Source: a virus
Lineage: Duplodnaviria > Caudoviricetes
Virus record (IMG/VR): IMGVR_UViG_3300033475_001784
Location: 1 to 38,410 of that record
Length of the DNA stretch: 38,410 bases
Strand: one strand, 5' to 3'
In this document: piece after piece, positions 1 through 24,900 of the stretch
How the letters are laid out: each line of letters opens with the position of its first letter
Numbering within the stretch: the stretch's first letter is position 1
Made by a program: the position numbers and the translations under genes
The notes under the pieces: generated by a model
What the model saw: the letters and a program-made list of their open reading frames with translations, nothing else
What the model was told of the DNA's origin: nothing
Database searches by the model: none

Positions 1-43
1 ATGAACAGCGTGCCGTGCGACGAAGAATTGCGTGAATCGGGAG

Positions 44-60
44 TGGTGCCCGGAACCGGA
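44..60 (-). other. att core matching a tRNA 3' end (probably tRNA-Leu); host-prophage junction
   Basis: Minus strand reads TCCGGTTCCGGGCACCA (3' T-stem, acceptor stem, ACCA); the two repeat copies diverge just outside it. Confidence 0.8.
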
Positions 61-98
61 AACATCATGCTAGCACTGGCGCGGCCTGTAGGCTTTTG

Positions 99-117
99 TG
101 GGTGAATTTTGGGGAAT
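99..117 (+). promoter_or_regulatory. Putative integrase arm-type sites
   Basis: TGGGTGAAT at 99 and TGGGGAAT at 110, 11 bp apart; the same motif pair lies on the other att arm at 38157 and 38168. Confidence 0.6.
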
Positions 118-130
118 CCCATGCGTCCTA

Positions 131-541
131 TTACTTCTTCTCCGCCGCCTTTCTCGCCATCTCCTTGTCGTATTCCTTGGCCTTTTCAGCCAGATCGATC
201 GACACCCATTCCGGATAATCTCGCGCCAGGATAACGACGTGCCATGTTTGGGCAACGGAAATTTTGGAATGGTCGTCAAAATAAAAGCCGGAAACGCGCA
301 TCCAGTCGCGATCCATGATGACAATGGATGCATCCCATACATACGGCAGAATTGGCTCGCCCATGCCGCCGGCCTCGATTGGGAGCGTAAGTTGCGCTCT
401 TCTCATCGTCCGGTGGAATACTTCGTGGTTGCACGGTTCCAGCCTAAAGGTTCCCTCGTGCCACTGCTTTTGCGTGCGCCCAATCCGGTAATTCGGCACC
501 AACATACCGTTTTCCCATAGCTCTGTAACTCGACAATACAT
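131..541 (-). CDS. Hypothetical protein, probably SOS-regulated (136 aa)
   Basis: AGGTG RBS upstream; adjacent to a LexA box; divergent from the SRAP gene. Confidence 0.7.
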   Translation of the reverse strand: MYCRVTELWENGMLVPNYRIGRTQKQWHEGTFRLEPCNHEVFHRTMRRAQLTLPIEAGGMGEPILPYVWDASIVIMDRDWMRVSGFYFDDHSKISVAQTWHVVILARDYPEWVSIDLAEKAKEYDKEMARKAAEKK

Positions 542-620: not shown

Positions 621-1310
621 ATGTGTGGTCGAATTTCACAGCACCAAGACATCATTGACTACTACAAGGGGCTCGGCCTGCCGCCTATTGAGATCGAGGA
701 TAAGGTGGGGCCACCGCGCCGGTTCAACGTATCGCCGGGAACGAATGTCATGGCAATTCACAGCTTAGGAGACGCCATAAGGGCCGATGCGATCCGTTGG
801 GGCTATCACACCAAATGGGCAAAGGAGAAGAAGATCCCTCCAGCGGTGAACGCCACGATTGAGAAGGCGAAGACGGGGTATTGGGCGGGATTGTGGAAGA
901 CGGGCCGGGCTATTGTTCCAGCGGATGGATGGTATGAGTGGACTGGCGAAAAGGGAGACAAACAGCCATGGTTCATCAAACACAAGTCCGGCGGCTCGAT
1001 CTACATTGCGGCGCTGACGGGGTACAGACCGAGCGCCGAGGGCGAGCAGCCTCATGGCGGCATGGCGCTTGTGACGACCGAATCAGCGGGCGGCATGCTC
1101 GATGTCCACGACCGCAGGCCGATCGTACTCACAGCAGAAGACGCCAAGATATGGATCGATCTGTCGTGGTCAGCAGAACAGATGCTGGAGCTAGTCCGCG
1201 CGTCTGCCCTGCCTCCTGATGCTTTCGAGTGGTACAAGGTGACACGAGATGTCAATAAGTCCGGGAATCAATCACCGGCAATGGTGGAGCCTTTAGCCGT
1301 CTCTGAGTGA
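621..1310 (+). CDS. SOS response-associated peptidase (SRAP; YedK/HMCES-like abasic-site protein)
   Basis: N-terminal MCGR, RFNVSPG, PADGWYEW, KQPWFI, VHDRRPI and VTRDVN motifs. Confidence 0.93.
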   Translation: MCGRISQHQDIIDYYKGLGLPPIEIEDKVGPPRRFNVSPGTNVMAIHSLGDAIRADAIRWGYHTKWAKEKKIPPAVNATIEKAKTGYWAGLWKTGRAIVPADGWYEWTGEKGDKQPWFIKHKSGGSIYIAALTGYRPSAEGEQPHGGMALVTTESAGGMLDVHDRRPIVLTAEDAKIWIDLSWSAEQMLELVRASALPPDAFEWYKVTRDVNKSGNQSPAMVEPLAVSE

Positions 1311-1580: not shown

Positions 1581-2477
1581 ATGCATAACTACAAAGCGTT
1601 ATTGGTCATCGCCCTGCTATTAGCTGGTTGCGGGAAAGGCGACAAAGGTGCTGCACTACATCCCAACGACCTTCCGGTTGCATTCGCCCTTGTCGACAAT
1701 GTGTCGCAACGCCTTGAACCGCTAGATCGCAAGGCGAGACCTCTGCCGAACGTATTGGTCATTAAGCCAGGTACTTATTCCATTGATGGGCAGACGTACC
1801 ATCTCAAAGAAGGGCTATTCCGCCTGTTCCGCCCCGGTCATAGCGGTGAGCAGCGCATTGTTTACCAGCACGATAAAAAGCTGCTTCTGGAATCACTGAC
1901 GTGGATAAAGTCGCATGGGGACATCAACGACGACCTGTTTCTGGAACAGCTCCTGTCGCGAGCAAAAACTCACAAGCTAGTGATTACCTGCGGAACGACT
2001 TCGAAGCTGTTTAAAGAGATTCTGAAAGATGTTGGCATCGAGTCGCGCATCGTCTCTACCGTAACGCTCGAAAAGTTGAACGGCTACGACAACGGCCACA
2101 CCATGTTGGAAGTAAATGTAGATGGCAAATGGGTGTTGTACGACTTCGATAACAATATCTACTTTTACAAGGGACACCCACTGTCATTTATAGAATTCAT
2201 TCGGGCGCAAGGCGACTATGATATGAAACCAATATCTAACGCCCCTGTGCTGACGGTAGATCGAGGAAAGGAAGACACCACGTTCTACTCAGAAGCTATT
2301 AACAGCAGCCTCAAGGGGTGGATCGCTCGCATAGATGACGTTGGCCTAATAGAGAGCGAGGGATATTTTTATTTCCCCGACATTCCAGAACGTGACCGGG
2401 TGGAAAGCTATTCCAATATCTATAAGCCGATGCCGCGAGACGAGTTCATGCGCACGTTTTATCCAGATCAGCACTAA
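1581..2477 (+). CDS. Lipoprotein with transglutaminase-like (Cys-His-Asp) domain; moron
   Basis: MHNYKALLVIALLLAGC lipobox; ITCG, NGHTMLEV and KWVLYD motifs; opposite strand to the late genes; paralogue of 4579-5301. Confidence 0.85.
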   Translation: MHNYKALLVIALLLAGCGKGDKGAALHPNDLPVAFALVDNVSQRLEPLDRKARPLPNVLVIKPGTYSIDGQTYHLKEGLFRLFRPGHSGEQRIVYQHDKKLLLESLTWIKSHGDINDDLFLEQLLSRAKTHKLVITCGTTSKLFKEILKDVGIESRIVSTVTLEKLNGYDNGHTMLEVNVDGKWVLYDFDNNIYFYKGHPLSFIEFIRAQGDYDMKPISNAPVLTVDRGKEDTTFYSEAINSSLKGWIARIDDVGLIESEGYFYFPDIPERDRVESYSNIYKPMPRDEFMRTFYPDQH

Positions 2478-2480
2478 TCG

Positions 2481-3245
2481 TCATTGATCCACGTACTTGT
2501 CCTTGAGGTAGTGCAACGGCACCCAGCACTCATCGAATTCCCCGTCGCTGACGTTATGCAGCATCAACACGCCATGCCAGTGTTTATTCCCCTGCGGCCC
2601 TAAGTAATCCTGCGGCTCGTCGTAGCATGATCCTGCGATGATGGAAGTGATTTGCTTCCCATCTGCCCGATAGGCAGTAGCACATTGCCGCCCTTGCTGA
2701 TGTCCTGCGATGCAAGACATATGCTTCTTATTGAGCTGCGCCTGAGCGGTACTTGCCGCTTGTCCTTTGGTGCCTGTGATGAAGAAGTGCGAGAACGCAA
2801 TACCTTCAATGACTATTACTTCGAGGTATGGAATTACCTCCCAGTCCTTTTCGTATTGCAGATCCTCGATACCAATCGTTCCATCAAGCATCGGCTCATT
2901 ATTGATCGCCCGCAGGATGCGTTCTTCGTGGTTCCCGAGCGTCAGCACCATGCGCGGCTTGTACTGCTTCTTTCGGTTCCGCTCCCGCTGCGCGTTGTAT
3001 TCCTTCATGGGGCCGAGCAGAGCAGCCATGCCTTCATGCGCGGCCTGGATGTCGGCCTTGTACCGCCTGCCCTCGAATGACTTTTTGCCCTTGTCGTATG
3101 AAGACAGCGATGGCATATCTGCAAAGTCTCCGGCGTGAACAATGACATCGGGCTTCTTGGCTACGATGTACTTGCCGATAGCGCGGAGAAAGGCAAAGTC
3201 GTTGCCGGGCTTACATTGAGAGTCGGGGATGAACAGGATTTTCAT
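2481..3245 (-). CDS. Calcineurin-like metallophosphoesterase
   Basis: IPDSQ, GDFAD, GNHE, FSH and GHQQ motifs; ATGA overlap with the upstream gene. Confidence 0.88.
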   Translation of the reverse strand: MKILFIPDSQCKPGNDFAFLRAIGKYIVAKKPDVIVHAGDFADMPSLSSYDKGKKSFEGRRYKADIQAAHEGMAALLGPMKEYNAQRERNRKKQYKPRMVLTLGNHEERILRAINNEPMLDGTIGIEDLQYEKDWEVIPYLEVIVIEGIAFSHFFITGTKGQAASTAQAQLNKKHMSCIAGHQQGRQCATAYRADGKQITSIIAGSCYDEPQDYLGPQGNKHWHGVLMLHNVSDGEFDECWVPLHYLKDKYVDQ

Positions 3246-3439
3246 TGTTCTGGCCCCTTGTATTCGCCGCACCAGTCGTCAGGGCTGACAACTGGATACG
3301 TGCAATCAAACTCGGATTCGCCAGCCAGAGGCATAGGTGGGTAACGTCGACAGAAACCAGCGTCCGCTCTACTTTCCATGAGCACGAAGCGGCAGGTCTG
3401 ACAAGCCTCCGCAATCGTCGGCTTTGCTTTCTTGACCAT
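3242..3439 (-). CDS. Small four-Cys metal-binding protein (65 aa)
   Basis: CQTC...FCRRYPP...VSPDDWCGEY; GAGG RBS; coupled to the phosphoesterase gene. Confidence 0.75.
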   Translation of the reverse strand: MVKKAKPTIAEACQTCRFVLMESRADAGFCRRYPPMPLAGESEFDCTYPVVSPDDWCGEYKGPEQ

Positions 3440-3450
3440 GTACGCCCTCA

Positions 3451-3912
3451 CTAAAACAAATTTCGTTCCGCCGTCCTGCGCAGCACTAGGCCCCGCAGAA
3501 CACGGCCACCGCCGCGAATCCACTTCATTATTTCGACCTTTGCAGACTCCCAATCGCCCTCGTTCACGCGCCGGCGTAAGGTCGATTGCCGCAGGCGGCC
3601 CGTACCAAGGTTGAAAGCGAAGTCGATCAGAGCGGCGAGGCGTTCCGGCGTTTCGACATGCGGACACAGCTTTAAGACCGCTGGCAGATATACGTTGCAG
3701 ACCATCCAGTGAAGCAGCGCCTCTGCGCGCTCCTTGGTGATCGCAGCATCATTAAGAGTTACAGCGCGGCCGTCCTCGTAGTACGTTGCCCCGTATCCAA
3801 TGGAGGGGACGCCGGCAGCGCAAAGGTACGGATGAAGGATTAACCCCTCGAAACGGCGCGCGAGAGATGCGGCAACCTCGATTGCTAATTGCTCGAAGTC
3901 GGCTCTCGTCAT
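3451..3912 (-). CDS. Endolysin, GH24 phage lysozyme
   Basis: FEG...PYLCAAGVPSIGYG, ALIDFAFNLG, STL and LRGLVLRRTAE motifs. Confidence 0.93.
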   Translation of the reverse strand: MTRADFEQLAIEVAASLARRFEGLILHPYLCAAGVPSIGYGATYYEDGRAVTLNDAAITKERAEALLHWMVCNVYLPAVLKLCPHVETPERLAALIDFAFNLGTGRLRQSTLRRRVNEGDWESAKVEIMKWIRGGGRVLRGLVLRRTAERNLF

Positions 3913-4376
3913 TTGCCGCGCTTCAGCAGTTGGCGATCAGCGACGAAGATGCCGAGTGCAGCGCCAATGATTGCCCATACCTGATCGTCAATCTTCCAAT
4001 CAAGTGCGGCGACATAGCGGACGATGAGAAAGATGCAGACTGTGGCCAATGCCGGGCGGATGCTCGCATTCCATGCGTCCACCCATTTGACGCCGGTTAT
4101 GCGTCCGGTCAATTCGACAGCCGTATTGAATCCCTCTGCCGCTAACTTATCGAGATCGACCTCCCCCTGCACTCGGATCGTCTGCACGCCAAGCCCTGCC
4201 TGAGTCTTGATCGCTTCTAAATTGCGCGCTTGCTGCTCGGCGTCCAGTCTGCCTTGCAGCTCCATCCGGGACATTTCTTGTTCGTGATCGATCTTCTTAT
4301 TGAAGAAGGACATGATTTCACCGAACAGCATGCGGAAGGCATTTCCGCCCAAGAATGAAAGTAACGCAGTAATCAT
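3909..4376 (-). CDS. Putative holin (3-TM, GTA-holin-like)
   Basis: Hydrophobic N-terminus, coiled coil, WVDAWNASIRP, two C-terminal TM segments and a basic tail; overlaps the endolysin start. Confidence 0.7.
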   Translation of the reverse strand: MITALLSFLGGNAFRMLFGEIMSFFNKKIDHEQEMSRMELQGRLDAEQQARNLEAIKTQAGLGVQTIRVQGEVDLDKLAAEGFNTAVELTGRITGVKWVDAWNASIRPALATVCIFLIVRYVAALDWKIDDQVWAIIGAALGIFVADRQLLKRGK

Positions 4377-4546
4377 TTGCTCCACCCCTGTCCTTTCAGC
4401 GCGAGATAAACCGCCCCTGCAAAGGCAGCCGCCATCAATCCGCCAAACGTCCATTTGCCGAGCTGCGCAAACTTGGCTTCGAGCCATTCACTAATTGCCT
4501 CCTTGATGGCCTCTTTCCACACTTCCTTGTCTACGTTCTCGGGCAT
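4373..4546 (-). CDS. Small single-TM lysis-module protein (57 aa), absent from the ORF track
   Basis: Hand translation MPENVDKEVWKEAIKEAISEWLEAKFAQLGKWTFGGLMAAAFAGAVYLALKGQGWSK; AAGGA RBS; ATGA overlap with the holin gene. Confidence 0.8.
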   Translation of the reverse strand: MPENVDKEVWKEAIKEAISEWLEAKFAQLGKWTFGGLMAAAFAGAVYLALKGQGWSK

Positions 4547-4578
4547 CACGATTCCTTGGTTCAGTTAAACAAATGGGG

Positions 4579-5301
4579 TCAGACAAACGCCTGGAAGATG
4601 CGGCGATACCATGCTTCGGCGTCCGCTGGGGTATTGAGCGTGCGCTCCCAATACAGGCCCAGGTCGAGAGAACCGGCGCAGTCATTCGTGTATTTGTTGT
4701 CATAGTCGAGCTTGACCAGCTCAGGAAATGCGCCGTTGTTCGCAATTGCGGCCATAAAGTCGGCGCAGGAAAGATGCTTGCCGGTCGCGTCCTTGAAATA
4801 ACAACCGCCGGTCATGTCCCACATGCGCCAATCGGCGCCATGCTTGGTTTCGACGATAAGATGTCCGTCGTCGTAACCATTTGTCGCTTGCAATGTCTTG
4901 ACATTCAACACGCGCGCCTGCACGCCCAGTTGCGGCATGAGCCAAGCGACCATGCCAGCGATAAATCCACAGCGTGCCGACCATTTACGCGTACGGCCTG
5001 CGTTCGCCATGACCTGGTAATCGCCTTCAGTTTGAGTGCCATGGACATGGTTCCAACTAATGCCGCTAATGACGGCGTATACATCGAGAGATGCGCCAGC
5101 GGCATAGACGACACGGTTGATGAAACTGCCTGCCGTGTTAAACCAGCGATACAGCCCTTGCCGCGTGCAGTCGTAGCTCACGCCATTGACGATGTATGTC
5201 CCCGGCACCATGAATGCCGATCCGGTCGGCAATGCAACGCCGCCTGTGGTTACAGGAATGTCCGAAACTTCATCAAAGCACATGTATTTAGGGCCTAGCA
5301 T
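4579..5301 (-). CDS. Transglutaminase-like (Cys-His-Asp) protein coupled to the tail fibre gene
   Basis: ARCG, DGHLIVE and WRMWD motifs; TAATG overlap with the tail fibre gene; no signal peptide. Confidence 0.82.
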   Translation of the reverse strand: MLGPKYMCFDEVSDIPVTTGGVALPTGSAFMVPGTYIVNGVSYDCTRQGLYRWFNTAGSFINRVVYAAGASLDVYAVISGISWNHVHGTQTEGDYQVMANAGRTRKWSARCGFIAGMVAWLMPQLGVQARVLNVKTLQATNGYDDGHLIVETKHGADWRMWDMTGGCYFKDATGKHLSCADFMAAIANNGAFPELVKLDYDNKYTNDCAGSLDLGLYWERTLNTPADAEAWYRRIFQAFV

Positions 5302-6800
5302 TACGCGTCCTTTCCACGGGTATCAATCCAGCCAAGAGTGGCAATTCTCAAAACAGCAGTTCCGCTTACGGATGGGATGCCGGTAAGCCGCGAACGAATT
5401 TGAGCTGATGTATTGGTACGAACTTCGCGGTAGTTGATGCCGCCGTTTGCGTTGCTCGCAGCCGAAACGGAGCTACCCAAGGGGGCAGCAGTAGAACTTG
5501 GCGCTTGGTCTGATACAGCCAAGTCGCTGAAGTAAGGGATGATCTGATTGGCGTTCGATGGCTCGTAAGCGCCGTAGTTGAAACGCGCCACGACGTTCAC
5601 ACCTGTCGGCACGCTAAGCGTGCGGGTAACAGCAGTTGAGCCAGGGCCGGCGACATCCACATCCAATACAGGGACATCCCATTGGAACGAATCGCCGTCT
5701 TGAATAAACTTCGTCCATTGTGCCGAACCGTTTGTCTTTCCAGAGCCGATGCGGCGGTATTGCGTGTAATTCATCGGGAGTGTCGGAGAACTCGCCGAGG
5801 TGGAGAAGCAAACATCGACTACGCCGGTATCCGGGCGTCGAATCGCGTAAAAGTGATACCAGGTGCTATTCGCAATCGTGCCGGTATCAAGACCGCCATT
5901 TCCACTACCAACAGCCCACGATGAGGTTGTCTTGCTGATCGACGCGGCTAGACTCATCAGCACAGCGTTTGTGCTGTCTGCCGCCTGCCCTGCGGCAATG
6001 GACATGGTTGCGGATGAGCCAGCAGTACTCATCGTTAGGCCTGACAGATACGAACGTGGCGGCGCAGACACAACCGACAGCCCATCCTTGCGAACAATCT
6101 CCACTGCAAAAGTCGTCGTAGTAACGGCGGTGATGATCCATTTATCGCCCGCTGCGGCCGCGGCATTCGCACTACCCTGCACAGCGATATTGCCGGCATT
6201 CGTAATGATTGTTCCCGCCGCCGGATAGACTTCTCGCTGCGCGCCGGCTTGCGGTGCCGCAGGGAAGTCCGTAATGGTCGGCGTGCCTGTCCAGTCTTGG
6301 ACATTGCCGTTGCTTGGAATCCAGAGCGGCGTAGCAGTCGCGGTGGCTGCTACTGTGGCGCGTTTCGAATTAAGCGCTGTAGTCAGGTTCGGCATGAGCG
6401 AAGTCCGCAATTGCGCAACTGATGCCGACGACAAAACAAGCTCGTACCATTGATTCGCGACGATTTCGCCACCGACGCATGCAGCGCCGCCGACTTGAAT
6501 TGCAATAGCGGTCAGACCGGAAACTGCGACAGTCACTGCTCCGGTGTTCGTGCTTGCGGCTTTAAACGCAAACGTCTGACCGGCAGCGTAGGCGGTAATT
6601 GCCGGCGATGGCGTCAACGTCAGTGCATTAGCGGTGCCGCCGGCAGTGCCGCACCATGTATTCGAGCCTTCTGCAAGTTGCTTGATGAAGGCAAAGACTG
6701 TGCGCAGGTAATCATCGACTGACGATGGCGTTTCGCTACCAGCAGGAGAATTGCTGGCCGGCGTCGTGGATAAATCCGTGATTGAGCTTGGTACGGGCAT
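5301..6800 (-). CDS. Tail fibre / receptor-binding protein
   Basis: Ala/Thr/Ser/Gly-rich; virion-anchor-like N-terminus; AGGTANALTLT, STWYHFYAI and YTQYRRIGS fibre-like segments; last large structural gene before lysis. Confidence 0.82.
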   Translation of the reverse strand: MPVPSSITDLSTTPASNSPAGSETPSSVDDYLRTVFAFIKQLAEGSNTWCGTAGGTANALTLTPSPAITAYAAGQTFAFKAASTNTGAVTVAVSGLTAIAIQVGGAACVGGEIVANQWYELVLSSASVAQLRTSLMPNLTTALNSKRATVAATATATPLWIPSNGNVQDWTGTPTITDFPAAPQAGAQREVYPAAGTIITNAGNIAVQGSANAAAAAGDKWIITAVTTTTFAVEIVRKDGLSVVSAPPRSYLSGLTMSTAGSSATMSIAAGQAADSTNAVLMSLAASISKTTSSWAVGSGNGGLDTGTIANSTWYHFYAIRRPDTGVVDVCFSTSASSPTLPMNYTQYRRIGSGKTNGSAQWTKFIQDGDSFQWDVPVLDVDVAGPGSTAVTRTLSVPTGVNVVARFNYGAYEPSNANQIIPYFSDLAVSDQAPSSTAAPLGSSVSAASNANGGINYREVRTNTSAQIRSRLTGIPSVSGTAVLRIATLGWIDTRGKDA

Positions 6801-9026: not shown

Positions 9027-10150
9027 CAGTGAAATGTCCCCGTTGCTGGGTCATACACGAGCGTCTTTCCTGCCGGCGGCGCACTTTCTTGCGCCTTGGG
9101 GAACAACGGATTGGCTTCAGAGAATTTACCCAATTCGTCGTAAAAGCCTTCGTCAATCGTGCCATTCCGTTTGCGATATTCGCGAGCGATGCGGGCAACA
9201 TCCTTATCGCGCTGGGCGAGCTTGCGACTCGTTTGCATAATCATGCGATTGCCCTCCGGCGTTTTCGACATGCCAGGTGTGATGTTCGTCAAGAATTCGC
9301 GGTCTTTATCTGACAGTGCACCCGGCATACCTGCGCCACCAGCAGGATTACGCGCTTGCAGTGCCATTTCGTTTGAGATGGCCTCAATGGCCTGCTTGCT
9401 TCCAAGATTAGGATCAAACTTCATGCCAAGAGACTCTGCTACTGCGGCGAGCTGCATGCGGCTTGGCTCCAACTTGCCGGTTTGAACGCCAGACATCAGA
9501 TTCGACAGTCGATCAAGGCGGGCAATCTTGTTGTTTGCCTCGAAGCCTGCCGATTGCAGGTCAAGATATTGCTTGCCGAAGCCCTTTCCGACTTCTTTAG
9601 ATTCCTCTGTCTCTTGCTTCGTGTTGACGTTTACATTCGACGCACCAGCTTTTGCGATGGCCCGCTTTGCCGCCTGCACACGAGGATCGAGGATCTCTGG
9701 CATTGCGCCATAGCCGGCAATTGTGCCTTGCGACTCACCAGGCTTCATCCACATCTTCTGCGTTCGCAGGGGGTCGGTCGGATCAGCCACCTCCACGAGT
9801 TGTGGCTTCTGGAACTGCGGCAGATTCTCAATCAACTTGTCAGGCGCAACATCGAATAGCTGCTGCTGATCGGCCGGTAAGGTATTGCGATACGCCGCTT
9901 GTGCATCGCGCTTACGCTGCATCTCTGCGGTGTCAGCGGCAGCCTTCTTCATCTGCAAATCACGTAGTTCCTGCACGCCCTGCGTCTGTAGCGCGTTGCC
10001 ATAGCCAGCCACGCCCGCAAGACCAGCACGCCCAAGATTGTTCACCGGAGTACCGCGACGCGCTCCTGCCAAACCTCCAGCTACTGCCGCAAGCAAGCCT
10101 TGGCCCTCCGGCGTCTTGGCGAAATCGAGCAATCCATTCATTCCGTCCAT
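9026..10150 (-). CDS. Internal virion / DNA ejection protein
   Basis: Gly/Ala-rich N-terminus; GALSDKDREFL motif; synteny. Confidence 0.7.
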   Translation of the reverse strand: MDGMNGLLDFAKTPEGQGLLAAVAGGLAGARRGTPVNNLGRAGLAGVAGYGNALQTQGVQELRDLQMKKAAADTAEMQRKRDAQAAYRNTLPADQQQLFDVAPDKLIENLPQFQKPQLVEVADPTDPLRTQKMWMKPGESQGTIAGYGAMPEILDPRVQAAKRAIAKAGASNVNVNTKQETEESKEVGKGFGKQYLDLQSAGFEANNKIARLDRLSNLMSGVQTGKLEPSRMQLAAVAESLGMKFDPNLGSKQAIEAISNEMALQARNPAGGAGMPGALSDKDREFLTNITPGMSKTPEGNRMIMQTSRKLAQRDKDVARIAREYRKRNGTIDEGFYDELGKFSEANPLFPKAQESAPPAGKTLVYDPATGTFH

Positions 10151-10152
10151 TA

Positions 10153-10914
10153 TTAGCCCCCGATCAGATTGCGGCGTTGCTGCCGGCGTAATTGCGAATC
10201 CTGCATGCGTGCTGCGTCCGTCGCCTGCAATTGCGCCAAGATGCCTTGCAAGGATTGATTAGAAGTTGGTGGTGCGATCTGCGGCGGCGGGACGGGTGCT
10301 GTTTGCGGCCCCTGAAGCTGCTGAGAAACTTTCATGCCAGTGCTTGCCGCATCCATGATGGGCTTTACCTTGCCGTAGCCCTCTTTAAACTGCGCTAGTA
10401 CGCCGGGGCTTTGTGAGGCGGTTGAAGTACCACCGGCCAGCAATCCGCTGGAGCCTCCAGCACTTCCCGCACCATACGTCACACCAGTGCCGCCTCCCAT
10501 GCCATAAGCAGAACCAGCCGTGTTGCCGGTCAATCCGATACCGGAGCCGCCCGCAGTTATGCCCGTACCTCCGCCCATGCCCGATGCGCCACTCGCCGCA
10601 CTACCACCACCAGCCGCGTTACCAGCCGCACCGCCCGCGTAGAACGATGCGATCGTTCGCGCAATGCCATGCATTGTCGCGCCTGGGCCTGTGTTAATGC
10701 CCGCGTCTTCTGCTTCCTGATACCGTTGTTTCGCCGCACCGCCGTATTGATCGACCAGCGGTTTATCGTTCGTGCCTAGTACCTTGTTCCACACACCCGT
10801 TGAGAACGGATCCGCAGAGCCATACAAGAGCCGCGCCGGATTGTCGCCAACTTGCTGAGCCATCTTGCCAAGGTTGAAATACTCGAAGTTTCCGACATCA
10901 CCGAGCCAGCTCAT
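10153..10914 (-). CDS. Gly-rich putative ejection protein
   Basis: Long Gly/Ala/Ser tract; overlaps the upstream gene in the ejection cluster. Confidence 0.65.
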   Translation of the reverse strand: MSWLGDVGNFEYFNLGKMAQQVGDNPARLLYGSADPFSTGVWNKVLGTNDKPLVDQYGGAAKQRYQEAEDAGINTGPGATMHGIARTIASFYAGGAAGNAAGGGSAASGASGMGGGTGITAGGSGIGLTGNTAGSAYGMGGGTGVTYGAGSAGGSSGLLAGGTSTASQSPGVLAQFKEGYGKVKPIMDAASTGMKVSQQLQGPQTAPVPPPQIAPPTSNQSLQGILAQLQATDAARMQDSQLRRQQRRNLIGG

Positions 10915-12342: not shown

Positions 12343-13784
12343 CGCATGCCTGCCGGTTTAAACTTGGCGTTCATGTGTGTTACACGGACTGCGCCAGTAA
12401 AACTAAAGGTCGCCTTGTGCCACCGTGACGACCGGAGACAGTCGAATTTCCCGTCGTTCATCGTGCCGGAAACACCTGCGGTGTACGTTTCGCCGCTGTT
12501 CATCGCGTGCATCGTTTGGGCGGAGGCAGTCGTTGGCTTTACTGCGTATCGGAGACGTAGTTGCTGCAAGAGCGACAGCGCATCGTCATCGCCCACCTCG
12601 CCTGTCGTGAAATCACTAGAATCTGATACGCCGACGAGTTTTTGCAGGCGGTTAGATGTATTAAAGACAGACAGAGACCGGCTCGCAGACGACCAGTACG
12701 GCGAGTCGAACGAGATGTCTGGAAGCGAGTCGTAAGTCGGCGCGACGGTATCCCACGTATCCATCGTCAGACCCTGCTCTACAAACGTCATAACCGCCTG
12801 AATCTCGCGATCTGCCCTGCCCCATTGCTTTGATTGGACGTGATAAACCAATGCGCTATCGCATTCGCTCGCAGAGGTGGATGGGTAGAAGATCCAGACT
12901 AGATTGCGGTCGCGGTCGAAGGTGCAGATCGTCTTGTAGAGAAATTGTGGATTGCTGTTATCAATGAACCACTTGCGAATAGTGCCATCGCCAAGTGGAG
13001 CCGGACGAACACCGTCAAATATCCAGAAGTTATCTTCGCCTACAAAGAAATGCGCTCCGCCTATGTCGCAAATGGCGTTCTTGCCAACGCATCCGGCATC
13101 GCCTCCTGAAATATGCTGCCAGTCCCAAATGACCGGTGCGCCAACGTATTGCCCTATGTAGATCGACTTATCCTTATAAGCCACGGCGTAATCGCCCAAG
13201 CGTGCGCCGGCAGTCAAGCGCCCCGGCGTTGCCACTAGGCGACCGGATGCGGCCTGCGTTGTGATTGATTCTGTCCAGTCCGTATCGTCATAAGCGGCGC
13301 AGCAGTGCCAGCCGTCAGGCTTGTCGGTTCCGTCCGACACATTCAAGGCCATGACGAATGCCCCTACTGAAAACACGACTTCAGCCTTCGGCGCGCCCGC
13401 AATGGCAGCGAATGCCCCGGTCAGCGACCGTTGAATCGTATCGGCGCGGTTTGCCATCAACGTGGCGTCACCAAACTGCGTGATCGACCAACGGGTATCC
13501 GCGCCCCCGACGTACCCGCCGGTATCGCTGCGATCTACCCATGCGCCAGAATCAAGTTCGTAGATCGCATCCACCGTCGCGGCAAACGTGCGCCTGGTGT
13601 AATCCAGCTTGTAGATCACGCCAGCACCCTTGCACACATCAGCCAGTGCAGGGACATCCATTGCCGTGATCGCAGATGGCCCACCTTCCATACCAATCAA
13701 GGCGGGAATCATGTTTGTGCAGTCCGAGAACAGGCCGGGCGTCGTTTGGTCTGCGTCCGGAGCGAATCCAATCACCGGAGTCAT
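12339..13784 (-). CDS. Tail hub/nozzle protein (P22 gp10-like)
   Basis: 481 aa, beta-rich; follows the adaptor gene. Confidence 0.72.
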   Translation of the reverse strand: MTPVIGFAPDADQTTPGLFSDCTNMIPALIGMEGGPSAITAMDVPALADVCKGAGVIYKLDYTRRTFAATVDAIYELDSGAWVDRSDTGGYVGGADTRWSITQFGDATLMANRADTIQRSLTGAFAAIAGAPKAEVVFSVGAFVMALNVSDGTDKPDGWHCCAAYDDTDWTESITTQAASGRLVATPGRLTAGARLGDYAVAYKDKSIYIGQYVGAPVIWDWQHISGGDAGCVGKNAICDIGGAHFFVGEDNFWIFDGVRPAPLGDGTIRKWFIDNSNPQFLYKTICTFDRDRNLVWIFYPSTSASECDSALVYHVQSKQWGRADREIQAVMTFVEQGLTMDTWDTVAPTYDSLPDISFDSPYWSSASRSLSVFNTSNRLQKLVGVSDSSDFTTGEVGDDDALSLLQQLRLRYAVKPTTASAQTMHAMNSGETYTAGVSGTMNDGKFDCLRSSRWHKATFSFTGAVRVTHMNAKFKPAGMR

Positions 13785-14344
13785 CGTGCGCGTGCCACCA
13801 ATGAGCCAAACCGGCGTTGGTCGTTGCCGTTAATGTCTGCTACGGTTTGGTCGAACAGGGCTTGCCATGTCGCAGGGTCGTCTCGGGTGAATATCGCTGC
13901 CTGCATCAATGCGCCGTACAGGTACAGGCTAGGATAGCTGTCGCCGAGCCACGTAGTGTCGTTGTCCGCGATAGACGGCACACGGGCATACAGCACGCCC
14001 TCCACATCGCCGGAGCCGTTGAATCGTAGATCCTGCCCTTGCCAGGCGTACAGCGTGGCAGTAGCGAGCGTGTCGCTTGCCAACACAGTGGAAAGTGATT
14101 GCGGCTTGATTTCGCTATTCGGGAAGCCGGACGGCCAGAGCAGTTTGACATCCACAATGTCATCAGCCGGCGTAATCAGGTTGTCCACGATCGTCGTTGC
14201 CGCCAGCACTGTCTCCATCTGACGCACCCGCAGATTGCGGTTGATTCGTTCCTCTGCCAGCTCGATAAACAGCGGAATTTGGGTCGTCAGGTCTGTCCTG
14301 TGCAGCCAGTCCGCAATCGTGCTTTGCAGGGTCGTATAGTTCAT
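13781..14344 (-). CDS. Head-tail adaptor protein
   Basis: MNYTTLQSTIADWLHRTDLT...FIELAEERINRNLR...YPSLYLYGAL pattern. Confidence 0.78.
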   Translation of the reverse strand: MNYTTLQSTIADWLHRTDLTTQIPLFIELAEERINRNLRVRQMETVLAATTIVDNLITPADDIVDVKLLWPSGFPNSEIKPQSLSTVLASDTLATATLYAWQGQDLRFNGSGDVEGVLYARVPSIADNDTTWLGDSYPSLYLYGALMQAAIFTRDDPATWQALFDQTVADINGNDQRRFGSLVARAR

Positions 14345-14643
14345 TTCAGCGCCTTGCTAAACGTGGCCATCGCTGGGTTAGCCCTGAGCCAAGCCATCGC
14401 ACGCTTGTTATCGATCGTTCCGTCTTGCCGCATCATCGTCGCTAGTTCCGCCATTGGAATGAATCCAACATGACGCATCTCACCCCAACGCTGGCCCTCT
14501 GTCTGCGCGCGCATCTCGGCTGCAACGTCGAGGAATGGCTTGCTGTCGTAGGTCTTCTGGATCACCATCCGGTCAGCGTCATCGATGTGATGAACCGTGG
14601 TCGTGATGCCAGTTTGTGCGTCAAAGTCTTGGAATTTGCCCAT
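14341..14643 (-). CDS. Hypothetical protein following the capsid gene (100 aa)
   Basis: ATGA overlap with the adaptor gene; synteny. Confidence 0.72.
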   Translation of the reverse strand: MGKFQDFDAQTGITTTVHHIDDADRMVIQKTYDSKPFLDVAAEMRAQTEGQRWGEMRHVGFIPMAELATMMRQDGTIDNKRAMAWLRANPAMATFSKALK

Positions 14644-14672
14644 AAAAAAACCGCCGAGTTTCCCCGGCGGTT
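14644..14672 (-). terminator. Intrinsic terminator after the major capsid gene
   Basis: AACCGCCG-GGGAAACT-CGGCGGTT followed by a T run. Confidence 0.8.
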
Positions 14673-14692
14673 CCTAGTGGTTGCTACTGCGA

Positions 14693-15664
14693 TTAAGCGG
14701 TCAGATCGGCGATCTTGCCGTGCGCAGCTTCTGCCGTGACGACCAGGCATGCCTCGACCGACACCAGCTCTTTCTCGGTGTGACCGGTTTTTGCCAGTTC
14801 GTCCGATTTGAAACCGCCCAGGTATGCGATACCTGCATGCTCCGGATTCAGAATGAACGCGGTGTTTGCATTGGCGGTTGCCTGCACGTAGTTCGGCACC
14901 ACGGCCAATTCGCCAAAGTCAGACATGTACACGTCAGCACCCCCGACGATGACTGCCTGTTTACCTTTCGCTACTTCCTTACGGTTGGTAGCAATACCGG
15001 TAAAGGCGCTAAAGCCTGCCTTGTGCGAAGGCGTCAAGCTGATGATGGTTGGCATCTCACCGGAGTTGGTGTAGATGCTCTGCATGACAGTCTTCAACTG
15101 CGATTCAGCGAATGCGCGGTTCGTGCCTGCCGTTGGCGCAGTCGAAGCCAGGCCGGAAGTATGCGAAGGAGTCGAGCCGCCAGTGCCAGAGCTGATGTTG
15201 GTGTAAAGCATCGCGCCGAGGCCAGACGATTTGCGCGCCGTGGTCGAGTCACCCGCGACTGCTGCATTGTTCGACAGAATCGACGCCTCCAGATCGCGTT
15301 TCAGCTCGACCATCTTCTTCGAGATTTGGTATTTCATCTCGTTGGATCGGCCTGCCGATTTGGTCTTTTGCTGCGTGCTGGATACCACGGCAACCTTGTC
15401 GAACAATTGAACGGTGTTTGCGACACGACCCGTTGCGGTCAGTGCCGTACCGGTGCGATCATCGCCTTCGATTTGGGCGTTGTCCTTGTTCGGCGCTGCC
15501 AGGGTATCGCGTTGCCATTCGTGCAGACGCTGGGTAGCGGTGAAACGACGGATGGCCGAGACGATTGGTGTTTTTTCTGGCGAAACCATATAGATCTTGT
15601 CTTGCAGGTCTTCGCGATTGCCGACAGCATCGTAGCTGTCAAAGGTATTGCTTGGCTGTGCCAT
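14693..15664 (-). CDS. Major capsid protein (DUF5309/SU10-like)
   Basis: GNREDLQDKIYMVSPEKTP, HEWQRDTL, ELKRDLE and YMSDFG motifs; strong AAGGAG RBS; follows the scaffold gene. Confidence 0.9.
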   Translation of the reverse strand: MAQPSNTFDSYDAVGNREDLQDKIYMVSPEKTPIVSAIRRFTATQRLHEWQRDTLAAPNKDNAQIEGDDRTGTALTATGRVANTVQLFDKVAVVSSTQQKTKSAGRSNEMKYQISKKMVELKRDLEASILSNNAAVAGDSTTARKSSGLGAMLYTNISSGTGGSTPSHTSGLASTAPTAGTNRAFAESQLKTVMQSIYTNSGEMPTIISLTPSHKAGFSAFTGIATNRKEVAKGKQAVIVGGADVYMSDFGELAVVPNYVQATANANTAFILNPEHAGIAYLGGFKSDELAKTGHTEKELVSVEACLVVTAEAAHGKIADLTA

Positions 15665-15676
15665 GTTTGATACTCC

Positions 15677-16558
15677 TTAAAGGAATTTCGCCAAATCCTC
15701 GACGCGCCCGTTCTGTTTCAGGCGATCCAAGGCGGCTTGGTTTTGTCTTGGCTTCGGTTGTGCGGCCTGAGGCTTGATGACCTTTGGCGCTTCCACAACC
15801 TTCTGAAGTGTTTTAGTCTTGCCGGATGACTGGTATTCACGGCCAATTGCTGCGTCGTGAAGGATGTGCACGAACTTCGCGCTGTGCATTGCCATCCGCT
15901 TTTCTTGCTCTGTCAGTCCGTACGCATCGAGGTTTTTCATGATGCGGTCAGAGTCGGCCTTGCCAAAATTCGGGAGTCGTGCCTTAAGCTCCTTTTCTTC
16001 ATGCGCCAACGTTTGCTGATCCATTTGTTGGGTCAGTTGTTGCGCCTGAAGCTGGGCTTGGTGCAATTCCGCGCCTTTTGACTGCGCTTCTCTCTGTAGT
16101 TGCTGATAGGCGATATTGAGTCGCGTTGCTTCTACCGGGTCGGTGTCCACCAGTGCCTGCCAGTCGATGTTCTCGAACTGCTTCAGGCGCGATTGCACTT
16201 CCCGGACCGCAACGGCTTTATCAAACGTTTCGTTGAGTACGCGTTCACGCGTTTCGAGCATCTGTGCACGCTCTTCAAACGCCTTGCGTTGCTCCGCGAC
16301 CGCTTGTGTTTTCTGCGTGTAATCCGATTGGCGCAGCAATGCTTCTTTCAGCTCTTTAGGAACTTTGTAAGCCTTGCCCTCATATTCGACCTCTTCGCCG
16401 TCGTCTTCGCCTTCAGGGTCGGTTTGCTGGTCATCGTCGGATGACAGTTCCGGCTCGTCGGGTTGATCTACAACGTCTTCCTGGTCTTCAATGGGTTCAT
16501 CAATCAAATCGGCAATCTCTGCCAATGACGACACTCCGCTATCTTGGTTGGTGTCCAT
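15677..16558 (-). CDS. Capsid scaffolding protein
   Basis: Acidic N-terminus, LRQSDYTQKTQ, coiled coil; directly upstream of the capsid gene. Confidence 0.85.
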   Translation of the reverse strand: MDTNQDSGVSSLAEIADLIDEPIEDQEDVVDQPDEPELSSDDDQQTDPEGEDDGEEVEYEGKAYKVPKELKEALLRQSDYTQKTQAVAEQRKAFEERAQMLETRERVLNETFDKAVAVREVQSRLKQFENIDWQALVDTDPVEATRLNIAYQQLQREAQSKGAELHQAQLQAQQLTQQMDQQTLAHEEKELKARLPNFGKADSDRIMKNLDAYGLTEQEKRMAMHSAKFVHILHDAAIGREYQSSGKTKTLQKVVEAPKVIKPQAAQPKPRQNQAALDRLKQNGRVEDLAKFL

Positions 16559-16573
16559 TCACGCTCCAAAAAC

Positions 16574-16621
16574 AAAAAAGCCCTCGAAAATGAGGGCGTA
16601 AAAAAAGCCGCTCTAGGCGGC
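16574..16621 (-). terminator. Two tandem intrinsic terminators
   Basis: GCCGC/GCGGC and GCCCTC/GAGGGC hairpins, each followed by a T run on the minus strand. Confidence 0.65.
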
Positions 16622-16644
16622 GTGTATCGCTTTCGCGAATATGG

Positions 16645-16935
16645 TCAGGCAATCAGGCGGCGAAGCATTCCTTCTTTCTCGAATCGCTTCATATTCTCTG
16701 TTGCCAGCTTTCCGGTCTCGATGTAGCCGGTCAGAATGTCTTTAAACTTGCGGGATGTTTTGATGAGCTGCCACAGCGCCTCTTTGCCCTCTTTGTCGCG
16801 GGCTGGGCAGGCAATCCACTGTTCCATCACATCCTGCTCGATGGCTTTCAGCGCCTCTTGCAGCAGTTCGTTTTGCAGCAATGAGAATGCATTGTGTCCG
16901 CGCGCCTCATCAGCCAGCAGGTCGGTATCAACCAT
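16645..16935 (-). CDS. Hypothetical protein downstream of portal (96 aa)
   Basis: Overlaps the portal stop; helical. Confidence 0.75.
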   Translation of the reverse strand: MVDTDLLADEARGHNAFSLLQNELLQEALKAIEQDVMEQWIACPARDKEGKEALWQLIKTSRKFKDILTGYIETGKLATENMKRFEKEGMLRRLIA

Positions 16936-18985
16936 TAATCAATGCTCCCGTGTCGATCAGCGCGGCTTGGCTAGCCTGCGCATGCATTAATTCCATTGCT
17001 TTGATGCGCTCCGCAGATGCGAGGCGCATTTGTTCAAGCTGAATTTCGTTCTGGCGATCAAGTTCCGCTTGCTGCGCCTTGAATTGCAACTCCGTTTTCT
17101 GCTTCTGCACGTCGATTTGCATTTCGGCCTGCGCTTTGTGCTGACTGTCTTGTAGCTTGGCTTGCTCTAGCAATACTTTTGGATCAGGCGGAGGCGGAGG
17201 GCCATCCGGCACCTTGTCAGGATCAAGCCAGAACTCGTTCGGGTTCTTGAAGCCAGCATTCTCAGCGAGGCGGGCCTGCACGTTGTAGATCTGTTTCGGG
17301 GAAATGAGCTTCTTCGCGTAGGGCGAGCCGGCGACCGTCGCCTGTGCCTGTGCGATCTGCATCAGGAACTGGCTTTGCTGCTGCTCGTCACCAGCCCCAA
17401 TACCGACGTTAATGGTCATGTCGTACTGATCGCGCCATTCCTGCGGGTCGTAGCTGACGAAGTTGCCGTTGAGGCGGTAGCTCAGCTTGTCCATGCAGTT
17501 GTCGGTGAGCGTCTTGAAGATGCCCTTGAACATCGGCGCAACCAGGCACTCGGCGGCGATGCGCGCCATCAGCTTCATACGCTTTTGGCTGGCATTCATA
17601 ATCATCTGCATGCCGCCCTTAGTCTTGTTCAGGCTATCGCCGTCAAGCCCTTGGGAGTAGCGCGTCCAGCCGGTGCGGTTCTCTTTCTCCGTCTGCAACT
17701 GTTCAAGCATCGGCATCGCCTGGATGCCTTGCCATTGCTCCGCAAACGGGCGAATTGCGCCTGCCACCTTTTCGCGCAAAATGCCACCTGGCCGGCGATT
17801 CAGCAGATCATCGATATTCGCCTGCGGGTTGCCTTGGCTGTCGGTCGTGACAACCGTTTCTTGATTGTTCGCCAGCGCAAGGTTATCGAGCTGGTTTCGC
17901 ATGATGGTCGTATGGATGCGCTGGAAGTCCTCGACCAGCTCCGCTACCGAGAAGCCGCCAAACTGGTGCGTCAGAATGTACGGCGTCCATGCGGCCATCG
18001 GGACATGGCTGACTTCCTTGTTCTCCAGGATGAGATCACCAAGGCGCACGATGCGGCGGCGCTCGGAGATGCCATCACCGTCGTAATCCACCAGCACATA
18101 TTCATCACGCAGCCAGCCACGAACGGTCGTTTCGTCGTCGGTTTCTTCGTTCTGCGTTGGAAAGTCGCCATTCTCGCGGCGATCCATGCTTTCGATGGAC
18201 TCGGCCTCGGATTGCGCGCTGCGCACATCGTCCGCGTCCACGTCATAGCCCATCTCGCGCATGTCAGACACGCTCTTTTGCGTTACATGGGCGACGTATG
18301 GGCATTCATCCAGCAGCAGCGAGTTATGCCGACGGGACACGCGCATCTCTTCAGGCGGGACAGCGACAATGCGGCAAATGCCCTTCTCTTCTACTGTCTT
18401 AACCTTGATGTTAAAGCGGCGCATCTGCGGGATGGGTGCGCCAAATTCGTCAACCTGCTGCGGCTGCTCTTCCTCAACCTCCTCCTGCTCCATGATTTCG
18501 GCGCTCGGATTGGTCATCAGGAACATGGCGAGCTGCATTTCGTCCACATTCTTGTATGTCGTGAAGGTAGGAACGCGCTTCTTCTCCCAAAACCACTTAA
18601 CGCCGCCCGTTTTCATCATCAGCGCATCTTTGAACGCGCTGTACAGGATCAGGAAGCCATTGTTTTGCTTGTAGAAGACGTAATTGCAGGCGTTCGTCGC
18701 TTGCTCTGCGCCGTCTACGTCCTCTTCGCCCGTTGGCTCGAAGATGACCGCCTTATCGCTGGCCGTGAATACCTCGATCAGGTCCGGCAGCATGCCCTCG
18801 ACAGCGTCGAACACGTCAGACGTGACAACCTGGGAGCGGCCTTCTTCCTCGTTGCCGTAAGGCTTGCGCATGTACGCACGAAGCGAACGGTCACGATCCT
18901 CCGTGATGTCGGATTTGTAGATGAGAGTCTGCTTGGACTCCTCATCTAGAATCCGCAGCAGTTCGGTATCGTCCATTTTCGTCAT
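16928..18985 (-). CDS. Portal protein
   Basis: 685 aa; PYGNEEEGRSQVVTSDV and FKDALMMKTG motifs; C-terminal coiled coil; downstream of terL. Confidence 0.9.
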   Translation of the reverse strand: MTKMDDTELLRILDEESKQTLIYKSDITEDRDRSLRAYMRKPYGNEEEGRSQVVTSDVFDAVEGMLPDLIEVFTASDKAVIFEPTGEEDVDGAEQATNACNYVFYKQNNGFLILYSAFKDALMMKTGGVKWFWEKKRVPTFTTYKNVDEMQLAMFLMTNPSAEIMEQEEVEEEQPQQVDEFGAPIPQMRRFNIKVKTVEEKGICRIVAVPPEEMRVSRRHNSLLLDECPYVAHVTQKSVSDMREMGYDVDADDVRSAQSEAESIESMDRRENGDFPTQNEETDDETTVRGWLRDEYVLVDYDGDGISERRRIVRLGDLILENKEVSHVPMAAWTPYILTHQFGGFSVAELVEDFQRIHTTIMRNQLDNLALANNQETVVTTDSQGNPQANIDDLLNRRPGGILREKVAGAIRPFAEQWQGIQAMPMLEQLQTEKENRTGWTRYSQGLDGDSLNKTKGGMQMIMNASQKRMKLMARIAAECLVAPMFKGIFKTLTDNCMDKLSYRLNGNFVSYDPQEWRDQYDMTINVGIGAGDEQQQSQFLMQIAQAQATVAGSPYAKKLISPKQIYNVQARLAENAGFKNPNEFWLDPDKVPDGPPPPPDPKVLLEQAKLQDSQHKAQAEMQIDVQKQKTELQFKAQQAELDRQNEIQLEQMRLASAERIKAMELMHAQASQAALIDTGALING

Positions 18986-19135
18986 TTATTCGTCTTCCAT
19001 GCCCATTGCTCGTTGCAATTCGCGGTATGCGGCCAGCCATCGCTCATCGTTATAGAAGCCGCACCCATACTCACGGTCGGCCTTGAACATTTCGCGCAGC
19101 AACGCCTTGATTCTTTCTAGTTCGTCGGTGTTCAT
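18986..19135 (-). CDS. Small hypothetical protein (49 aa), absent from the ORF track
   Basis: MNTDELERIKALLREMFKADREYGCGFYNDERWLAAYRELQRAMGMEDE; ATGA overlap with terL; stop abuts the portal ATG. Confidence 0.72.
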   Translation of the reverse strand: MNTDELERIKALLREMFKADREYGCGFYNDERWLAAYRELQRAMGMEDE

Positions 19136-24271: not shown

Positions 24272-24900
24272 GACGCCACCTCTTTATCGGCCAACTTAAT
24301 CAAGCCCTTGTAGTGGGCGATCTGTTCTTTCAATTCGGGAATGCTCAACTTCTTCACTGGATGTGGGCCTTCAAGCCATTCAACGCGTTCTGCGCCGATC
24401 TTCTTTACTAGTCCGCTCCGGTACATCACTGCGTTGCTACTCAGTTGCACGTTGCAGCGGTGGCACTGCTTGTGGATGTTGTCCAGAACGAACCGGAGGG
24501 TGTTGTTTGCCCCCCTGGATATGTAGTGGCCGGCCTCCCACCGCACGGTTACTGTTGTGCCGCAGGAGATACAAGGCAAATCACGGTCACGTACGACGCG
24601 CACCCACTTGTTCACCAGCTTTTGCAAATCCTCTTCCCATGCGCTGTGTTTCTTCAGCGCTTCTCGCTGCACCCTCGTCTTCTTCCGCTCTTCCTGCTCA
24701 CGCTTGGCTGCTTCCTTTAGGCGCTTCATCTCAGCTACCGCTTGGGCGCATTGCCATGAGCAGACTGTTTGCATCGGCTTGGTCTTCGTGAACTTGGCGC
24801 GGCACTGACGATTGGCGCAGGTGTATTCCTTGTGTGGCTTTTCCGACAACGATGCAGGAGCATTCCTACATGACGAGGCAAATTTTTTTGAGCCAATCAC
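24268..24900 (-). CDS. ninG: NinG/Rap-family endonuclease
   Basis: Zn-finger N-terminus (VCSWQCA), RDRDLPCISCG, AGHY and NIHKQCHRCN motifs. Confidence 0.87.
   Translation of the reverse strand: MIGSKKFASSCRNAPASLSEKPHKEYTCANRQCRAKFTKTKPMQTVCSWQCAQAVAEMKRLKEAAKREQEERKKTRVQREALKKHSAWEEDLQKLVNKWVRVVRDRDLPCISCGTTVTVRWEAGHYISRGANNTLRFVLDNIHKQCHRCNVQLSSNAVMYRSGLVKKIGAERVEWLEGPHPVKKLSIPELKEQIAHYKGLIKLADKEVAS

Follow-up and report, generated by a model that had tools for sequence, protein, structure and literature searches.

Diverged transglutaminase-like paralogues in a P22-like prophage: a tail-fibre-coupled protein and a predicted lipoprotein

Why would a temperate phage carry two related transglutaminase-like genes, one coupled to its tail fibre and the other encoding a lipoprotein? 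This question is raised by the provirus record IMGVR_UViG_3300033475_001784, of which one strand of 38,410 nucleotides (positions 1 to 38,410; the whole analysed stretch, hereafter the window) was examined. The gene for a 240-aa protein, P0001, lies directly behind the tail-fibre gene on the minus strand, and the gene for a 298-aa protein with a lipobox, P0002, lies on the plus strand. As judged from their sequences, both genes are real and belong, as deeply diverged paralogues, to an uncharacterised transglutaminase-like Cys-His-Asp family, and the surroundings of their relatives were analysed for what the pair might do.

The two proteins and their family

When P0001 was compared with P0002 by BLASTP, 28% identity was found over 166 residues (23-185 versus 52-209, E 1e-22). 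Cluster representatives were gathered for both proteins (37 for P0001 and 11 for P0002), giving alignment A1 with 29 rows and alignment A2 with 12 rows. Profile-profile comparison of A1 with A2 by hhalign gave a probability of 99.9 and an E value of 1.2e-36 over 208 columns (P0001 26-239, P0002 56-255), including the C-terminal WYRRI/WIARI block. By these alignments, paralogy of the two proteins is far beyond chance. Residues C111, H147 and D162 of P0001 were invariant in A1, and C137, H173 and D188 of P0002 were invariant in A2 and in A8 (51 rows). The same columns were invariant in the joint alignment A3; the five alignments made had 29, 12, 31, 25 and 51 rows. Residues near the triad, including G112, D144, G146 and E151, were also invariant or nearly so.

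The N-terminus of P0002, MHNYKALLVIALLLAGC, holds a textbook lipobox as read from the translation, LLAG followed by Cys17. The N-terminus of P0001 is not hydrophobic, and since its frame is open for just 7 codons upstream of the ATG (open frame of 247 aa), no hidden leader is present. The ATG of P0001 overlaps the TAA of the fibre gene (TAATG), and the purine-rich GGAAAGGA is found just upstream. Leaders were judged by eye and with a hydropathy script.

The AlphaFold2 model of P0001 had a predicted local distance difference test score (pLDDT) of 94.5 and a predicted template modelling score (pTM) of 0.92, and that of P0002 a pLDDT of 92.6 and a pTM of 0.87. The order of secondary-structure elements was identical in both models, to which P0002 adds its leader and a C-terminal sub-domain (254-293). 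In both, the Cys stands at the N-terminal end of a helix, and a strand beginning with the His is followed by one ending with the Asp. The leading Foldseek/VIA matches were weak, and nearly all of them belonged to the transglutaminase superfamily; the match list contained PeiW/PeiP, TG2, TG3 and factor XIII, arylamine N-acyltransferases, LapG, TgpA, PNGase and a putative cysteine protease of Cytophaga. The preliminary description of this DNA had proposed transglutaminase-like paralogues, collinear similarity over nearly the whole shorter protein, a Cys/His/Asp triad with transglutaminase-like spacing, and a division into a signal-less late-operon copy and a lipobox copy. All four agree with the present results: paralogy, predicted fold class and conserved triad hold, the similarity extends over the 208 aligned columns, the triad gaps are 36 and 15 residues in both proteins, and P0001 stands without a leader behind the fibre gene with the lipobox protein P0002 encoded inside the prophage.

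Pfam PF01841 (Transglut_core) matched P0002 with 25.0 bits against a gathering cut-off of 23. There was no Transglut_core match for P0001, which is tied to this domain solely through the profile-profile match to the long branch of the family. At E <= 0.01, Transglut_core was found in 35 of the 51 long members and 7 of the 25 short members, and 29 of 30 ESM-Atlas neighbours of P0001 were Transglut_core clusters. P0001 and P0002 are placed in the transglutaminase-like superfamily by triad and fold, the Pfam score being borderline. Searches of PDB sequences with the A1 and A2 profiles gave chance-level rows only, with no solved structure detectable and no Pei chain at E <= 10. Neither P0001 nor P0002 is named by any PHROG, NCBIfam or PADLOC family, and PADLOC-DB gave no match at E <= 0.01 for P0001, P0002, P0195 or P0059. 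BTLCP (Pfam PF06035) did not match P0001 or P0002 at E <= 1, nor any of the 51 long and 25 short members at E <= 0.01. No Pfam domain besides Transglut_core was found in the two proteins, and hence no cell-wall-binding domain; P0001 had no Pfam or PHROG match to tail-fibre assembly families of the Tfa, gpG or gp38 type.

The family is a sizeable, unnamed, divergent branch of the transglutaminase-like superfamily. A profile of both branches recovered 1084 cluster representatives at E <= 1e-3, 335 of them at E <= 1e-30. Among 194 proteins, a hydrophobic N-terminus was lacking in 58 of the 60 with at most 265 aa and present in 87 of the 130 with 266-420 aa; a lipobox-like motif was seen in fourteen. 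In an IQ-TREE analysis of 66 rows the deepest split (Shimodaira-Hasegawa-like approximate likelihood-ratio test, SH-aLRT, 99) separated 26 rows, made up of 23 short proteins and three with 275-286 aa (the short clade), from the 40 rows of the long clade. P0001 and P0002 fall on either side of this split, so they did not arise by a recent duplication; such an event within the phage was ruled out by this position together with the 28% identity. P0002 belongs to a fully supported clade of 5 rows with P0040, P0041, P0059 and the lipoprotein of locus L015. Independent recruitment of the long copy of locus L006 was also considered, as the free trees set it apart from the P0002 clade. The approximately unbiased (AU) test did not reject grouping the two (p-AU 0.857), the constrained tree having a log-likelihood 27 higher, and no such claim was kept.

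Several members have other architectures. P0119 has a twin-arginine translocation (Tat)-type leader and an insertion of about 190 aa, and P0090 has a prepilin-type N-terminus. In P0182 the family domain is fused behind a multi-spanning spermidine-synthase-like membrane protein, P0051 is a 586-aa chain holding two family copies, and in P0161 a short-branch domain follows an N-domain without known family and a poly-proline linker. From the lipobox, Tat and prepilin-type leaders, and from the charge around three anchors read by eye, the long forms are predicted to be exported or membrane-anchored, with the catalytic domain outside the cytoplasm.

Genomic context of the two branches and of the element

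Loci were scanned from metagenome contigs (48) and species genomes (11). Surface-glycan clusters surrounded 7 of 8 long metagenome loci by Pfam scan of the neighbours, and 5 of 8 named genomes by NCBIfam scan (Nitrosopumilaceae, Methylomicrobium, Veillonellaceae, Lachnospiraceae and an alphaproteobacterium). The neighbours of long forms included NAD-dependent epimerases/dehydratases, PseC/DegT aminotransferases, nucleotide-sugar dehydrogenases and WbpB-/WbpD-like enzymes, as well as Asn-synthase-type amidotransferases, FemAB-type transferases, formyl- and carbamoyl-transferases, WbuZ, glycosyltransferases and Wzx or Wzc. The context was also counted by tblastn with ten glycan-pathway enzymes against all 58 non-window loci, a cruder method than the Pfam scans. 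At least two kinds of glycan-pathway neighbour were found in 30 of the 38 loci of at least 6 kb, and an Asn-synthase-type amidotransferase in 26 of the 38 (manual row count). The exceptions in the Pfam and NCBIfam scans were L057 (a phage), L072 (a TraG/VirD4 gene nearby), and L073 and L076, whose neighbours were uninformative.

Some long forms were found in unusual settings. Two long copies lie 6 kb apart in one cellular glycan cluster (L017 3560-4261 and 10001-10867, the same in L048). The Mu-like phage contig L057 carries a long form among late genes without known function, adjoining a 1940-aa polyvalent protein with an ADP-ribosyltransferase domain (positions of the two, 9908-10840 and 13656-19478). 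In a Porticoccaceae genome (L072 2744-4105) a long form lies near the gene for a TraG/VirD4 coupling protein, and some long copies may travel on conjugative elements.

Relatives of P0001 in viral sequence were limited to four viral contigs and three near-identical Bordetella phages; a viral scan with alignment A6 returned the same four contigs only. A profile scan of species-genome contigs with the short-form alignment yielded no relative, and neither did scans of the viral collection with P0002 and P0059. The window and 4 of 4 readable relatives (L004, L006, L007 and Bordetella phage PBb001, the same as L001) have the short form directly behind a fibre gene, L005 being left out of this count since its contig begins too near the gene. 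L004, L006 and PBb001 are myoviruses with baseplate J/I genes, and L007 is a podovirus. Behind the short form, the window, L004 and L007 have lysis genes, which in L006 come after an intervening long copy; in PBb001 a tail-collar protein gene lies between the short form and the lysis genes.

The fibre C-terminal domain is common to the window, L004 and L006, but not to L007 or L001; the N-terminal homology of the window fibre is to the L007 fibre. The C-terminal domain occurs in at least 2870 proteins and 534 confirmed viral stretches. Among the 80 best viral loci with this domain (39-63% identity), 73 had at least 900 nt of readable sequence downstream. A hidden Markov model (HMM) of the family, which recovered all positive controls, found a member in 0 of these 73, and the fibre domain therefore does not need the short form. 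This fibre domain is without a Pfam family, yet about 1100 stored stretches with it are estimated in the viral collection.

Short and long forms occur together in the window, in L015 and in L006 (G003). On the 1.9-kb contig L015, one strand carries a short form 81% identical to P0001 and, 20 nt further on, the gene of a lipoprotein whose lipobox reads VLTGC; genes for a small membrane protein and a phosphoesterase come next on that strand. In L006 the short form is followed in tandem by a 346-aa copy with a hydrophobic N-terminal leader and then by an endolysin. Coinciding contig sizes are circumstantial evidence for four more pairs: the longest contig is 41,871 bp for each of P0006 (short), P0040 (lipoprotein) and the fibre P0225 (a coincidence of size, with no accessions), and contigs of 22,206, 12,720 and 3,833 bp occur in both the P0013 (short) and P0059 (long) clusters (again a coincidence of size). 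Within their own clades, P0001 lies close to P0013 and P0002 close to P0059, which fits co-inheritance. The phosphoesterase gene of L015 (1439-1924) is a homologue of the window metallophosphoesterase gene and likewise adjoins the enzyme pair; it may be part of the same accessory module.

The provirus record spanning the window has an estimated completeness of 99%, and the genome plan is that of a lambdoid, P22-like podovirus. After the cI/cro region the minus-strand order is NinB, DNA methylase, NinG, terminase, portal, scaffold, major head protein and ejection proteins, and onward the 499-aa fibre, P0001, the lysis cassette and the metallophosphoesterase. The features are listed in Table 1. 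The element is bounded in att-like fashion by a 125-bp exact direct repeat, which may have arisen as an att duplication or as a tandem copy, or by assembler read-through of a circular form. Its left copy overlaps the 3' end of a minus-strand open reading frame (ORF; 131-541). The source contig extends about 50 bp past the right end of the window, and the 8.4 kb left of the window on the same contig hold host genes for malonate decarboxylase and a tripartite ATP-independent periplasmic (TRAP) transporter. Since the P0002 gene is enclosed by the repeats, it belongs to the prophage and not to the host flank. Its G+C content (0.489) is below that of the window (0.549). The gene lies on the strand opposite to the late operon and is convergent with the operon end; a gene for an SOS-response-associated peptidase (SRAP) precedes it on the same strand, also inside the prophage.

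Table 1. Positions of the features of the window
Feature	Position	Strand	Evidence or remark
125-bp exact direct repeat, left copy	43..167	none	125/125 identical to right copy; sharp left edge at 43
SRAP (abasic-site cross-linking family) gene	621..1310	+	Pfam PF02586 E 8.9e-43; phrog_1599 E 2.8e-56
P0002, 298 aa, predicted exported lipoprotein, long branch	1581..2477	+	Transglut_core match, alignments, AlphaFold2 model
P0002 codon, lipobox Cys17	1629-1631	+	
P0002 codon, C137	1989-1991	+	
P0002 codon, H173	2097-2099	+	
P0002 codon, D188	2142-2144	+	
Metallophosphoesterase, final late-strand gene	2481..3272	-	phrog_221 E 5.7e-55; Pfam Metallophos
Lysis cassette, directly downstream of P0001	3242..4549	-	phrog_7, phrog_6637, phrog_15838; Phage_lysozyme
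Rz-like ORF	3242-3667	-	
Endolysin	3451-3912	-	phrog_7 E 2.4e-39; Phage_lysozyme E 4.4e-30
Membrane protein, lysis cassette	3909-4487	-	
Small ORF with C-terminal transmembrane segment, lysis cassette	4373-4549	-	
P0001, 240 aa, signal-less short form	4579..5301	-	Alignments, AlphaFold2 model, start overlapping fibre stop
P0001 codon, D162	4818-4816	-	
P0001 codon, H147	4863-4861	-	
P0001 codon, C111	4971-4969	-	
Tail fibre, 499 aa	5301..6800	-	Homology to relatives' fibres
Fibre C-terminal domain, aa 250-499	5301-6053	-	
DNA N6/N4 methyltransferase gene between NinB and NinG	24897-25583	-	Early-late region
cI-like and cro-like genes	27.6-28.3 kb		
125-bp repeat, right copy	38286-38410		Adjoins integrase; reaches window end

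Surface-glycan remodelling and other explanations

We consider it plausible, if somewhat short of probable, that the pair are enzymes which remodel an envelope glycan or a receptor, comparable to HvyA of Caulobacter. The preliminary description had inferred cell-surface chemistry, and independent support for it came from the 30 of 38 long-form loci in glycan clusters; HvyA, which controls capsulation and phage sensitivity (PMC4241560), is a precedent. Both enzymes would act on a host surface glycan (O-antigen, capsule or exopolysaccharide) or on its envelope attachment, and the fibre would be expected to bind that same glycan. An acyl-Cys intermediate would be formed, with an amide or ester group of the glycan being hydrolysed or transferred. 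Because Asn-synthase-type amidotransferases and sugar aminotransferases were the commonest neighbours, uronamide or N-acyl groups on sugars may be suggested as speculation. The lipoprotein copy would work from the periplasmic side, and its opposite orientation in this prophage would permit expression in the lysogen. There it might alter or remove the receptor, resulting in superinfection exclusion or in progeny being spared from trapping. Being produced late along with the fibre, the short copy would apply the same chemistry from outside, on the virion or freed at lysis, as a receptor-modifying or receptor-destroying enzyme.

A number of observations weigh against glycan or receptor remodelling. 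Co-occurrence of the two genes in relatives had been expected in the preliminary description; the pair does recur in L015 and L006, but it is not obligate, as the three complete relatives G001, G004 and Bordetella phage PBb001 have the short form only. The lipoprotein gene had also been described as oriented like a moron, which fits its opposite strand inside this prophage, whereas the long copies of L015 and L006 follow the short copy in the same direction as the late genes. Moron-like expression in the lysogen can therefore not be generalised to every pair, and that step of the mechanism is weakened. A promoter-like site ahead of P0002 (1512-1540) was no better than chance, with 2 sites found and 4.6 expected. 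The glycan-cluster context is limited to the long branch, and its carry-over to the short branch depends on homology across a deep split. The 38 counted loci include near-duplicates (e.g. L029/L030/L031 and L017/L048), so that the independent number is smaller. Finally, the target of HvyA may be a protein, so that a glycan is no more than a candidate direct substrate even for this analogue.

The position of P0001 behind the fibre gene could have a different meaning, namely that P0001 is an assembly or maturation factor of the fibre (a chaperone, a trimming protease or an isopeptide cross-linker) and that the lipoprotein has an unrelated envelope role. Transglutaminases are able to cross-link or cleave proteins, the TAATG overlap couples the translation of P0001 to that of the fibre, and in L004 and L006 the gene occupies the slot after baseplate J/I and fibre where P2/Mu-type phages keep an assembly gene. 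However, the absence of a family member from all 73 viral loci with the fibre C-terminal domain makes an obligate fibre chaperone unlikely, and the short form also follows fibres with unrelated C-terminal domains (L007 and L001). P0001 resembled none of the fibre-assembly families in Pfam, fibres fold in the cytoplasm, out of reach of the exported paralogues, and the long branch is found in glycan clusters; a role in fibre maturation appears improbable to us. On the other side of P0001 lie the lysis genes, directly downstream in the window, L004 and L007 and beyond the long copy in L006. P0001 might thus serve as an accessory lysis enzyme: lacking a signal peptide, as canonical endolysins do, it would reach the envelope through the holin lesion and cut an amide link there (such as a peptidoglycan cross-bridge or a lipoprotein-peptidoglycan tether). 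The structural matches to PeiW/PeiP fit this explanation, these being prophage-encoded cell-wall isopeptidases (PMC2989375, PMC4592898). Such a function is nevertheless unlikely, since holin-like, endolysin and Rz-like genes are already present in the window, a tail-collar gene parts the PBb001 homologue from the lysis genes, and L015 has no endolysin between the pair and the phosphoesterase. Moreover, a wall-cutting lipoprotein in the periplasm would be costly for the host of the prophage, the long branch is linked to glycan clusters and not to cell-wall loci, and a cell-wall-binding domain is lacking.

The lack of an export signal in P0001 and the ancient separation of the short and long branches would also be compatible with an intracellular deamidase or protease acting on a host or phage protein, in takeover or counter-defence, at a moron hot-spot between fibre and lysis genes, the two copies having different targets. 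All 4 readable relatives, which represent two tail types, keep the gene in its fibre-coupled late-operon slot, neither copy has a PADLOC match, and the recurrence of short and long forms together in several relatives argues for a shared task, so that we regard this explanation as quite unlikely. One or both copies could also have lost catalysis and serve by binding, as a receptor mask or as a decoy, the latter an alternative named in the preliminary description; the weak fold matches would agree with this. It is hardly to be expected, however, when no alignment shows any change of the Cys, the His or the Asp and adjoining residues are likewise invariant or nearly so.

Glycan or receptor remodelling can be taken a step further, to a new class of transglutaminase-type amidases or transamidases that use carboxamide or N-acyl groups on surface sugars and have been recruited by phages as a two-compartment receptor-remodelling system. 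We hold this extension to be doubtful. The sugar groups would be set by the neighbouring Asn-synthase-type amidotransferases and used as protein transglutaminases use glutamine; the signal-less enzyme would edit the glycan from outside and the exported paralogue from the periplasm, excluding rivals or freeing progeny. If this were true, Cys-His-Asp amide or acyl transfer would join glycosidases, lyases and esterases in the phage handling of surface polysaccharides, and about 1000 sequence clusters in glycan gene clusters, from archaea to Firmicutes, would gain a function. The pair would then also provide a simple genetic handle (Cys-to-Ala in either copy) on how a temperate phage uses and then hides its receptor. 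Even when the results are read conservatively, the short branch recurs as a companion of tail-fibre genes in phages and had no name before.

Comparison with known systems

Arylamine N-acetyltransferases (NATs), which appear among the structural matches, are cytoplasmic enzymes using acyl-coenzyme A (acyl-CoA). Unlike NATs, the long forms are predicted to be extracytoplasmic, where CoA thioester is absent. LapG is a periplasmic protease of the BTLCP family that releases the adhesin LapA, its substrate being a protein. LapG and the periplasmic domain of TgpA, both with protein substrates, are not known from a phage or glycan-cluster context and share no Pfam-level membership with P0001 and P0002. 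PeiW and PeiP, pseudomurein endoisopeptidases of peptidase family C71, carry N-terminal pseudomurein-binding repeats, whereas no such repeats were found in P0001 or P0002. They are lysis enzymes of archaeal viruses (methanogen phages and prophages) with no known tail-fibre link or exported paralogue, and no sequence similarity to the family profiles was detectable.

The receptor-modifying functions of phages include tailspike esterases and deacetylases, O-antigen conversion (Gtr and Oac) and exclusion lipoproteins (Llp of T5, and Cor). They follow the same logic as that proposed here, in which a virion activity on a surface glycan is combined with a change or masking of the receptor by the prophage. 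In contrast, their folds and chemistries are unrelated, none of them being known as transglutaminase-like or as a pair of exported and non-exported paralogues. The preliminary description knew of no phage system with this pairing, and our literature search likewise found no paper describing such a pair, or tail-fibre coupling of a transglutaminase-like gene.

The closest functional parallel is HvyA of Caulobacter, a transglutaminase-like protein that resides in the periplasm and is encoded within the capsule locus (PMC4241560). According to the same paper, its catalytic C/H/D residues are required to prevent capsulation, and its loss renders the cells insensitive to phage phiCr30. Like HvyA, the lipoprotein copy is predicted to be an exported Cys-His-Asp protein of transglutaminase fold, and the HvyA locus (PMC4241560) is a surface-polysaccharide locus, as are most of those read for the long branch. 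The two differ in sequence family, as P0001 and P0002 had no BTLCP match at E <= 1. HvyA is furthermore a host cell-cycle gene product, soluble in the periplasm and not known to have a phage-encoded or signal-less partner, whereas P0002 is a prophage lipoprotein by its lipobox. Both surface-remodelling enzymes of transglutaminase fold and receptor modification by phages are already known in kind, and the present pair would be a variant of them.

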